NCBI GenBank assembly: GCA_965203275.1
Contig: OZ241865.1
Location: 704,001 to 768,000, forward strand
Direction: 5' to 3'
DNA from: Bdellovibrionales bacterium
GTDB lineage: Bacteria > Bdellovibrionota > Bdellovibrionia > Bdellovibrionales > JAUICD01
Length of the DNA: 64,000 nt
Below, one piece after another: positions 1,683 to 2,505 of the stretch (positions are counted from its first letter, which is position 1; each line of letters begins with the position of its first letter). The translations under genes were made by a program, and so were the position numbers. A model generated the notes under the pieces. It did no database searches. It was not told the origin of the DNA and saw nothing but the letters and a program-made list of their open reading frames with translations.

Positions 1683-2505
1683 GCATTTTATCGATGGCGA
1701 AAGCCATCGTGGTCATTGCCAGAAAGTAGCCAGAAGCTAGTTCAATTTTAGGGAAAAAGAGGCCGGACCACTTTTAGTGAAACAAACCCCTAACCCCACC
1801 CGTCGCCCTTCGATTCTGCTTTTCTATTTGTATGTTTTTTATGAGTGGGATGCGAAGGCAGGCTTCCGAAGTCCTCAACTTTTTTCACTCAAAATAAACT
1901 GGCCTCTGGCCACTTTTGGGTAGCCAGCCCGACGGCTACCGCCGTCGTAAAAAGCTGGCTACCTCAAAAGCTTGTTTATTTTGAGTAGGGAGGATCCTTT
2001 TATTCCTTTACACCATGTTAGGGAAACAAGATATGCTTCTAAAATGCTTTTAAGGAGCAAGCGGATTTACAAATGAAACTCTTTTTCCTTAACATGGTGT
2101 TAAAAGAGGAAAGGATCCTTCCTACTAAAAGTGGTCAAGCTTTCTAGGTTGCCAGCATTTGAGAAGGCGAAAGCCTTCGGCTGGCAACCAGAAAGTAGCC
2201 AGAGGTCAGACCACTTTTAGTGAAACAACTCCTCCAGCCTGCCTTCGCATCCCACTCATAATATTTATATTTTTTGAAAATTACGCAGAATCTAAAAGAA
2301 AATAAAAAAACAAAAAAAGGAACTGTTTCCTTAACATCGTGTTAAAAAACGAAGGGATCCTCCTCTACTAAAAGTAAACGGACTTTTGAGGTTGCCAGCA
2401 ATTGAGAAGGCAAAAGCCTTCGGCTGGCAACCCAAAAGTAGCCAGAGGCTAGTTTACTTTTAGTGAACCAGAGGCATGTTTTATTTTGAGTGAAATGTTA
2501 GTGAA
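1648..2505. repeat. Cluster of structured palindromic repeat modules (P family) nested within a split long-hairpin Q element
   Basis: Several copies of ctaaaag...gc-GNNA-gc...cc-aga-gg...ttttagtgaaa in both orientations; Q arms at 1788-1880 and 2235-2320. Confidence 0.9.

Follow-up and report, generated by a model that had tools for sequence, protein, structure and literature searches.

P copies at the locus and across the window

Two plus-strand copies of a repeat that we call P lie near the start of the window, the whole 64,000-nt stretch of DNA analysed here (positions 704001-768000 of G000, a single 2.57-Mb contig of 35% G+C). Both are where the original prediction had placed them: profile matches cover 2082-2227 and 2324-2470, and the arms of both closing stems were located. 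Copy 1 (2065..2232, with an approximate tail end at about 2232) is a whole unit composed of a ragged leader (2065-2081), a 5' word with small hairpins (2082-2122), a three-way junction (2123-2222) and an A-rich tail. In its junction, the closing stem P1 pairs 2123-2136 with 2209-2222, the long arm P2 carries a bulged A and a T-rich internal loop, the apical stem P4 is capped by a GAAA loop, and the side hairpin P3 has an AGA loop. Copy 2 (2316..2470) forms P1 from 2366-2379 and 2452-2465 and contains the AAGGA..TCCTT leader hairpin. The sequence of an older P remnant, extending from the AGA loop to the 3' end on the same strand (2471..2494), is joined to the tail of copy 2, and this join belongs to a class of junctions met genome-wide.

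These copies interrupt a structured repeat distinct from P, here called B. On the plus strand, the left part of B occupies 1787..1876, a remnant of its middle 2045..2064, and its right part 2233..2315, which runs into the leader of copy 2. The middle remnant sits between two P insertions, copy 1 and a third, minus-strand copy (1880..2044) arranged head-to-head with it. Compared with an intact B allele (G000:788658), 13 bp of B were lost to copy 1 and 7 bp were replaced by the third copy. The locus contains two separate P insertions inside B, one per strand, with no target duplication. The B family comprises nested hairpins of about 250 nt (window 1787-2315, 50515-50745 and 55990-56190). Counted by one motif, G000 has 62 B copies, 47 of them intact, and relatives occur in G001, the nearest relative of G000. 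B is both a frequent target and a frequent upstream passenger of P.

P pieces are scattered through the rest of the window. A 5'-truncated copy with a loop-to-end remnant (1652..1785, plus) provides the stop codon of the ORF at 228-1682. A head-to-head pair (13719..14061; 13719-13865 minus, 13918-14061 plus) lies between two ankyrin-repeat genes, followed by a cluster of three partial copies (15117..15567) and a five-piece cluster (17578..18270) that includes a 264-bp tandem duplication of a fragment plus a full copy. At 20665..20871, a full minus-strand copy is fused to an opposite-strand fragment at the TAACA/TGTTA hairpin. Five co-oriented pieces, three of them full, occupy 22141..22835 (minus), and a fragment plus a full copy lie downstream of dnaE (48176..48395, plus). 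Two clusters with eight pieces in total (50362..52194) surround a 3'-truncated four-helix-bundle gene and an intact B repeat. Two identical full copies (52665..53198, plus) belong to a 385-bp tandem duplication that includes flanking DNA. Three pieces accompany a B repeat at 55662..56249 (minus), three more, one of them full, lie at 60246..60692, and isolated fragments occur at 45..102 (minus) and 10239..10276 (plus, a 3' fragment). With 41 non-overlapping pieces in the window, 22 of them full, in 14 clusters, the predicted figure of more than 25 copies in about 12 clusters was right, if slightly low.

The fold of P and its covariation

The P unit is non-coding and 150-170 nt long. Its core is a three-way junction formed by P1 (14 pairs), P2 (16 pairs with a bulged A), a T-rich asymmetric loop, P4 (6 pairs) and P3 (5-6 pairs with the AGA loop). 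The pairing was assessed in an alignment of 40 copies from G000, G001 and G004 contigs. Paired bases were found in 96.2% of cells, compared with 82.9% in shuffles, none of which reached the real value (0/500), and in 33-49% of cells when partners were slid. Both sides had changed in 31 of the 47 pairs.

Of 742 full G000 copies, 700 could be parsed into stems. Each stem has 5-13 fully paired alleles with at least five copies, and the alleles named in the original prediction exist and pair. The common alleles are almost all Watson-Crick; at least 46 pair swaps separate alleles with five or more copies, with no fixed intermediates. The two arms of P1 are of the same allele in 566/646 copies, compared with 15% expected if they were free, while 80/646 have hybrid arms; recombination among the stems has produced 127 combinations. 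When the stem sets were thinned to 184 and placed on a tree, true partners changed on the same branch in 129 of 320 chances, compared with 134/1,439 for other positions of the same arm. All four junction stems thus covary also under this tree-based control, a rough one since P copies recombine, and the predicted covariation holds. The predicted RNA fold is strong (z about -6.7).

The proposal that structure rather than sequence is selected is borne out for the junction stems and does not extend to several parts that are conserved as sequence, namely the T/A tracts, the bulged A, the AGA loop and the 5' CCTTAACAT word. Similarly, the predicted multi-hairpin layout stands for the three-way junction; its three small 5' hairpins are much weaker and conserved mostly as sequence. 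AAGGA..TCCT is present in 224/692 copies, the TAACA/TGTTA hairpin is fully paired in 244/692 with only one doubly changed cell in the 40-copy alignment, and the GATC palindrome is often broken. Two details had to be revised. The side hairpin, described as fully complementary, is a TAGCC/GGTCA hybrid in the copy at 2082, and the unit does not end in AGTGAAA: it continues into a variable A-rich tail, and it starts 12-25 nt or more upstream of CCTTAAC. Intact cores are multi-copy more often (88/281) than cores with a non-canonical pair (10/148), a contrast that overstates selection, as singletons are expected to carry more mutations anyway.

P is read on one strand

Three asymmetries distinguish the strands. 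On the given strand, G-T variants outnumber A-C variants (46 versus 16, p=2e-4), C>T exceeds G>A among single-change variants (22 versus 8), and the purine-rich loops all lie on it. Because a double-stranded cruciform would be symmetric, these biases in the sequence indicate that the P fold is read on one strand. The apical loops of the 700 copies are GNRA in 393, GNYA in 234 and a five-base G..A loop in 58, and 685/700 have the AGA triloop in the side hairpin. Among stable DNA hairpins, GNNA loops and C-closed purine triloops are typical, whereas RNA favours GNRA. As far as sequence can tell, the loop types lean to DNA over RNA without being decisive. Folding energies calculated as DNA and as RNA do not separate the two.

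Copy number, recency and distribution of P

A profile built from 622 seed copies gave 1,555 matches in G000, of which 1,377 were non-overlapping and 742 full length, and none in the reversed G000 sequence. P covers 157 kb, or 6.1% of G000. An identical twin exists for 123 of 727 full copies, which indicates that spread or conversion of P is recent. The summed read depth over P is high in four public sequencing runs, showing that P is not an assembly artefact. Contigs from these runs break at P, and none of those listed bridges an empty site. Sequences of close strains were present in two runs labelled as sponge metagenome, where pieces of 250-400 nt differ at a few places; the source organism is therefore probably host-associated. 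G000 gave no usable GC-skew signal for a replication-strand bias of P.

A covariance model of P, with 20 candidates scored per genome, matched three of 151 genomes of the order, namely G000, G001 and G004. In G004, all P copies and the only Rpn gene are confined to three small contigs, C1, C4 and C11 (L094-L096, L006). The rplN on one small contig is 98% identical to that of G001, and a large G004 contig has another rplN. Given this second rplN, the P-bearing contigs are probably mis-binned DNA of the genus g1, which would make P genus-specific. A P position upstream of rplN is common to G001 and a related contig. Partial rplN duplicates also lie 3' of the intact gene, near P clusters (G001:2850419-2850664; G004:C11:41626-41892 and 44512-44811).

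Two sister genomes carry repeats of their own. The repeat of G003, Q, is a hairpin of about 130 nt with 119 tail motifs and 224 profile matches in 1.56 of 1.60 Mb read. It has a long stem with swappable arms, purine-rich internal loops, apical loops of the C-GAA-G or C-AAA-G type, and conserved head and tail words (examples at L092:820-942 and L157:7595-7895). A third repeat, R, occurs on the main contigs of G004 (400 kb read; examples at L118:2658-2749 and L123:391-546). It has a head word and a post-stem word in common with Q and carries several interchangeable hairpin cargos. For Q and R, fold conservation was assessed by visual inspection of copies. Homology of P and Q was considered and dropped, as their profiles do not cross-match. 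Different fold-conserved repeats in G003 and G004 suggest that the behaviour recurs in the family. In 381 kb of G002, no such repeat was seen.

Plasmid and phage collections contained no P match. An exact degenerate P pattern found no stretch in viral and JGI metagenome contigs and at least 17 in genome contigs, where all the matches listed were from G001. P has no Rfam match at gathering or E-value thresholds, in agreement with the predicted novelty; in the window, Rfam recognised two tRNAs only, and sub-threshold eukaryotic miRNA models matched the inverted P pair as a generic hairpin. A literature search that covered few subscription journals found no description of P.

P joins a variable 3' end to targets without a consensus

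We collected 1,164 3' ends, mapped 879 of them to a target, and retained 597, representing 184 target sites, under a stricter filter that required at least two target copies and a linker of no more than 11 nt. At these sites, the 3' join falls 0-11 nt beyond the P1 foot, within the A-rich tail. Short linkers often show 1-4 nt of microhomology and long linkers none. The 184 sites have no target consensus, as base counts are flat and no dinucleotide or tetranucleotide is shared; in 90 joins with long linkers, the most frequent first two bases occur 12 times each. The 5' side is ragged. It starts 12-24 nt before CCTTAAC in 190 of 427 upstream types, with a tail of up to 59 nt. Among distant identical copies, only the upstream flank was shared in 32, only the downstream flank in 5, neither in 46 and both in 42.

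The arrangement of copies is polar as well. At cluster ends, 3' ends point outward in 105 cases and inward in 6, and adjacent full copies are tandem in 176 cases, head-to-head in 60 and tail-to-tail in 15. Of 133 types of join into a resident P, 124 are on the same strand, and 47 of them lie close to the AGA loop; homology thus seems to be a frequent means of resolving the 5' side. Insertions take the place of target bases and do not duplicate them, as at the B repeat described above, and a head-to-head P pair in Rpn genes replaces about 230 bp; this pattern of replacement without duplication is taken from few inspected cases. Insertion just 3' of a hairpin is weakly preferred at unique-like targets (50 versus 38, p=0.03).

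Both orientations of P occur between co-oriented genes, with no clear sense bias (401 versus 343). Inside genes, the raw count of sense and antisense joins (45 versus 16) fell to about 17 versus 8, which is not significant, after repeat-derived ORFs, doubtful ends and duplicates had been removed by eye. The 3' end of P (GTG AAA CA) also opens reading frames that continue in frame into downstream ankyrin and Rpn genes (window 12543-13706; G000:1135829 and 367734), giving them apparent shared N-terminal extensions.

Gene families next to P

Rpn (Transposase_31) is the most enriched large family near P in G000: 54 of 57 Rpn ORFs lie within 300 bp of P, compared with 132 of 493 single-copy core genes. 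Within the same distance are 50/95 ankyrin and 10/70 coiled-coil paralogues; pilin-like genes (24/33) and four-helix-bundle genes (15/15) are enriched as well. Many Rpn genes are cut by P, at independent sites. In G003, 8/20 Rpn ORFs are near its own repeat Q, compared with 129/1,355 ORFs. The linkage of Rpn and P in G001 is modest. Rpn occurs in six of the 151 genomes of the order, four of which belong to the family of G000; the Rpn-rich genomes G108 and G112, with 10-14 Rpn genes each, are from another family. The main contigs of G004 carry the fold-conserved repeat R and no Rpn, so Rpn is not required for such repeats.

RpnA is a non-specific endonuclease that leaves 3'-OH ends able to act as primers, and a role in template switching has been proposed (PMC5350276); Rpn genes are likewise described as toxin-antitoxin modules with a C-terminal antitoxin (PMC10327210). 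Where a P insertion cuts the Rpn toxin but spares the C-terminal antitoxin, it may be there simply because the host tolerates or favours it, which could give the same enrichment. We treat Rpn as a lead for the source of breaks, not as a result. At G000:1530100-1532600, 888100-889600 and 1287200-1288700, P cuts Rpn toxin genes upstream of an internal ribosome-binding site. At these loci, the C-terminal, antitoxin-like part is multiplied in tandem.

Two other families were considered as partners and set aside. The occurrence of the four-helix-bundle (23S IVS/Avd-like) gene initially matched that of P perfectly on five genomes, and in G000 a same-strand P usually follows it. The gene is present in 47 of the 151 genomes of the order, is absent from the repeat-rich G003, and at the two G004 loci read it stands alone with no P after it. 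It is found, as genes and fragments, at window 51268-51486 and in 31 other G000 tblastn matches, flanked by GATCCGG-type heptamer arrays, and is multi-copy in several P-free genomes of the order. A DUF3782-like PD-(D/E)XK family, a label based on weak matches of a G003 relative, is likewise unsupported, occurring in 7/151 genomes and not in G004. At window 39664-40602 (minus) is a coiled-coil protein with a PD-(D/E)XK-like part, with 11 matches in G000.

Search for a mobilising enzyme

The window had been predicted to hold no cognate transposase or reverse transcriptase (RT), and the same is true of the whole of G000 for the families searched; G000 is rated 90% complete, which sets the scope of every negative result in it. 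For Y1 enzymes, PF01797 had no match in G000 at E<=0.1 and none in G003 or G004, and one IS200-sized match in G001. With the Y1 proteins of G001 and G002 as tblastn queries, nothing in G000 fell under E 0.3; RAYT-sized G002 proteins had no match there, and an HUH motif scan returned five unconvincing ORFs. The Y2 family PF04986 matched none of five genomes searched, and the IS110 family PF01548 was found in neither G000 nor G001. No RT (PF00078) was found in G000, G003 or G004, and tblastn and a motif scan of G000 were also negative; G001 gave three matches, including an intact group II intron-type RT and a retron-type RT. No Ku was found in G000. Genes adjoining repeats in both G000 and G003 formed 32 pairs and yielded no new enzyme candidate.

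Several enzymes that are present were examined and rejected. Each genome has one UvrC-sized GIY-YIG match, and G000 has no stand-alone GIY-YIG. The tyrosine recombinases of G000, one XerD-like and one of 187 aa, each have one G001 counterpart and look housekeeping by inspection; in G003 and G004 (1.6-Mb genomes), no XerC/D-family tyrosine recombinase matched. IS256, IS1634-like and resolvase genes, so named by inspection, occur in G000 with little linkage to P (2/9, 2/7), and such enzymes make exact ends. The retron-type RT of G001 was dismissed as a partner, since the nearby P is outside the retron, bordering a tRNA-like sequence about 440 bp beyond the RT stop. This RT is fused to an N-terminal domain and lies beside the tRNA-like sequence (G001:2649241-2652813, L013).

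The window also encodes a 702-aa protein with many tandem helix-turn-helix repeats (HTH_Tnp_1-like; 10353-12461, minus) and no Pfam transposase core. Restriction-modification genes lie at 24158-26025 and 31451-37620 (both minus): a DpnII-like nuclease and methylase inside an alternative complex III operon, and a type III-like enzyme next to two methylases. GATC is frequent in P.

Comparison with known mobile repeats

One-ended rolling-circle elements (IS91/ISCR and Helitrons) have one active end, a variable other end and flank capture. They also have a base-exact end, a target motif (of the GTTC/CTTG type for IS91) and a Y2 or Rep-Hel enzyme. P resembles them in its one active end, variable other end and flank capture, but no exact end, target motif or Y2 was found. 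SINE-type and endonuclease-independent retro-insertions show an A-rich 3' tail, a truncated or extended 5' end, target deletion and no target sequence. P is similar in all these features, and differs in its DNA-like loops and in the lack of a detected RT in G000. Unlike IS200/IS605 derivatives, P has variable ends and no tetra- or pentanucleotide target, and no Y1/TnpA was found in G000. Unlike IS110/IS1111 elements with bridge or seek RNA, it has no DEDD recombinase (PF01548) in G000 or G001. It differs from integron attC sites in that no IntI was found and in occurring in both orientations and in clusters, not as one site behind each cassette gene.

REP/BIME/REPIN elements with RAYT are closer. 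Like P, they occur in hundreds of intergenic copies that fold as single-stranded DNA, show compensatory changes, form mosaic clusters and head-to-head pairs, and amplify in tandem (PMC3333891, PMC3337134). In P, a three-way junction of 100 nt takes the place of the short hairpin, one end is polar, passengers are carried along at the 5' side and target bases are deleted; no RAYT gene was found, and the joins have no shared cleavage dinucleotide. It also has no conserved GTAG foot: GTAG occurs only with the TAGCC side-hairpin allele (163/700), inside paired stems. The bcr1 repeat of the Bacillus cereus group is about 155 bp long and dispersed, has a branched fold kept by compensatory changes, and has no transposase named for it in the account consulted (PMC3184786). 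The same account describes bcr1 as transcribed and flanked by 5-bp direct repeats; P shows target replacement, in the few cases inspected, and ragged ends, and unlike bcr1 it reaches 6% of the genome. Correia/nemis, RUP and Nezha MITEs resemble P in size, copy number, non-coding nature and stable fold (PMC3184786). Unlike TIR-type MITEs, P lacks terminal inverted repeats, its two ends being unrelated, and the inspected cases show no target duplication. P thus resembles REP/BIME and bcr1, yet fails the defining tests of each and of MITEs, IS200/IS605, IS91, IS110, attC and SINEs.

A proposed route for the spread of P

P is a selfish, non-coding, genus-specific repeat that behaves as a mobile element and not as a gene. 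The original prediction had called it a structured ncRNA or a single-stranded-DNA, non-autonomous mobile element. The junction patterns support mobility and a single-stranded intermediate, while a functional ncRNA gene does not fit dispersed, nested, truncated, genus-restricted and gene-breaking copies. P is a real and mobile non-autonomous structured repeat, and its mobiliser may not be a transposase.

We propose, with a probability of about 0.45, that P multiplies as a folded single strand, probably DNA, which host enzymes capture at breaks or by template switching, without a dedicated transposase. What is observed comprises the number of copies, the fold on one strand, a fuzzy join at the 3' side and a ragged one, with passengers, at the 5' side, the replacement of target bases, same-strand nesting and mosaic stem alleles; the mechanism builds on the junction patterns and on the enzymes not found in G000 (rated 90% complete). 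Spread without a transposase is favoured because no searched enzyme that would fit the ends of P was found, and an end that is spread over 11 nt without a target motif is hard to reconcile with exact-end enzymes (DDE, Y1, Y2 and recombinases). A single strand of the unit and its leader, sometimes with upstream DNA, would first be released or synthesised. Its closed Y fold would protect the strand or eject it from the template, leaving an A-rich 3' tail of 2-10 nt; broken-stem copies would do so poorly. By this short free tail, the folded strand would next be attached to whatever DNA end is free at a break or stalled fork, using 0-4 nt of microhomology and requiring no target sequence. Cleavage at hairpin loops would supply the breaks, or else non-specific nucleases would, the expanded Rpn family being one candidate. 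Finally, the 5' side would be mended through microhomology or, with greater ease, through homology to a copy already in place; the outcome would be clusters, same-strand nesting, chimeras, small and large deletions, and tandem duplications. Against break capture, reverse transcription would account just as well for the A-rich tail, the ragged 5' end and the deleted target bases, no Ku was found in G000, and the insertion preference 3' of hairpins is weak.

An HUH transposase (Y1/RAYT-like or rolling-circle) could instead move P as a large REP/BIME analogue, the enzyme being too divergent, encoded on unassembled DNA, or lost. One active end with flank capture resembles one-ended rolling-circle transposition, and G000 is rated 90% complete. 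The folded single-stranded substrate, clusters, tandem amplification and head-to-head pairs resemble BIMEs (PMC3333891). We nevertheless consider this unlikely: PF01797, PF04986, RAYT-sized tblastn queries and the HUH motif scan gave no convincing G000 candidate, no dinucleotide or tetranucleotide is common to the joins, 3' ends are spread over 11 nt, and a conserved GTAG foot is absent.

To the same degree improbable is a SINE-like retro-element, in which a trimmed structured RNA is reverse-transcribed from DNA breaks by a trans-acting RT, such as a group II intron enzyme that G000 has since lost. It would account for the variable A-rich 3' tail, ragged 5' end, 5' passengers, target deletions and absence of a target consensus; G-T tolerance fits G-U pairing, and G001 has the intact group II intron-type and retron-type RTs. 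However, G000, G003 and G004 have no RT match although 123 of 727 full copies in G000 have an identical twin, one third of the apical loops are GNYA, the side loop is a triloop, and there is no clear sense bias between co-oriented genes.

Covariation might also arise without selection, if intramolecular template switching corrected the arms while ectopic gene conversion and segmental duplication spread the copies. The perfectly paired common alleles without fixed intermediates, the hybrid arms, and the 42 distant identical pairs with both flanks in common point that way. Such correction would erase bulges and asymmetric internal loops, yet these are kept, and it leaves unexplained the polar ends, the 105:6 orientation of cluster ends and the 46 identical pairs with unrelated flanks; we regard it as very improbable. 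Slightly less probable still is that the host keeps P for a function, as a non-coding RNA or a cis-regulatory element (mRNA stabiliser, terminator or protein sponge), for although the fold is strong and conserved and the position upstream of rplN is common to G001 and a related contig, P has no Rfam match, its copies nest, truncate each other and break genes, and it is genus-restricted and found in both orientations between co-oriented genes.

Implications

Among the small structured repeats of bacteria, the route of spread is, to our knowledge, settled for two kinds only: REPs, with RAYT, and MITEs, with IS transposases. P fits neither route. With 6% of a 2.6-Mb genome, more than 700 full copies, natural compensatory alleles and hundreds of readable junctions, it is a ready test system for mobility that is independent of a transposase or driven by an unknown enzyme. 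P also reshapes G000, in which it breaks and duplicates genes and adjoins most members of expanded gene families. More speculatively, P and the unrelated repeats Q and R could form a class of bacterial selfish DNA without a transposase, in which the folded strand is its own mobility signal and is pasted by host break repair fed by non-specific nucleases such as Rpn; we rate this as doubtful, though not far-fetched. If it is true, 'Transposase_31' proteins would gain a real role in mobility, and the class would account for how copies of ankyrin, pilin-like and antitoxin genes have spread in host-associated Bdellovibrionales.
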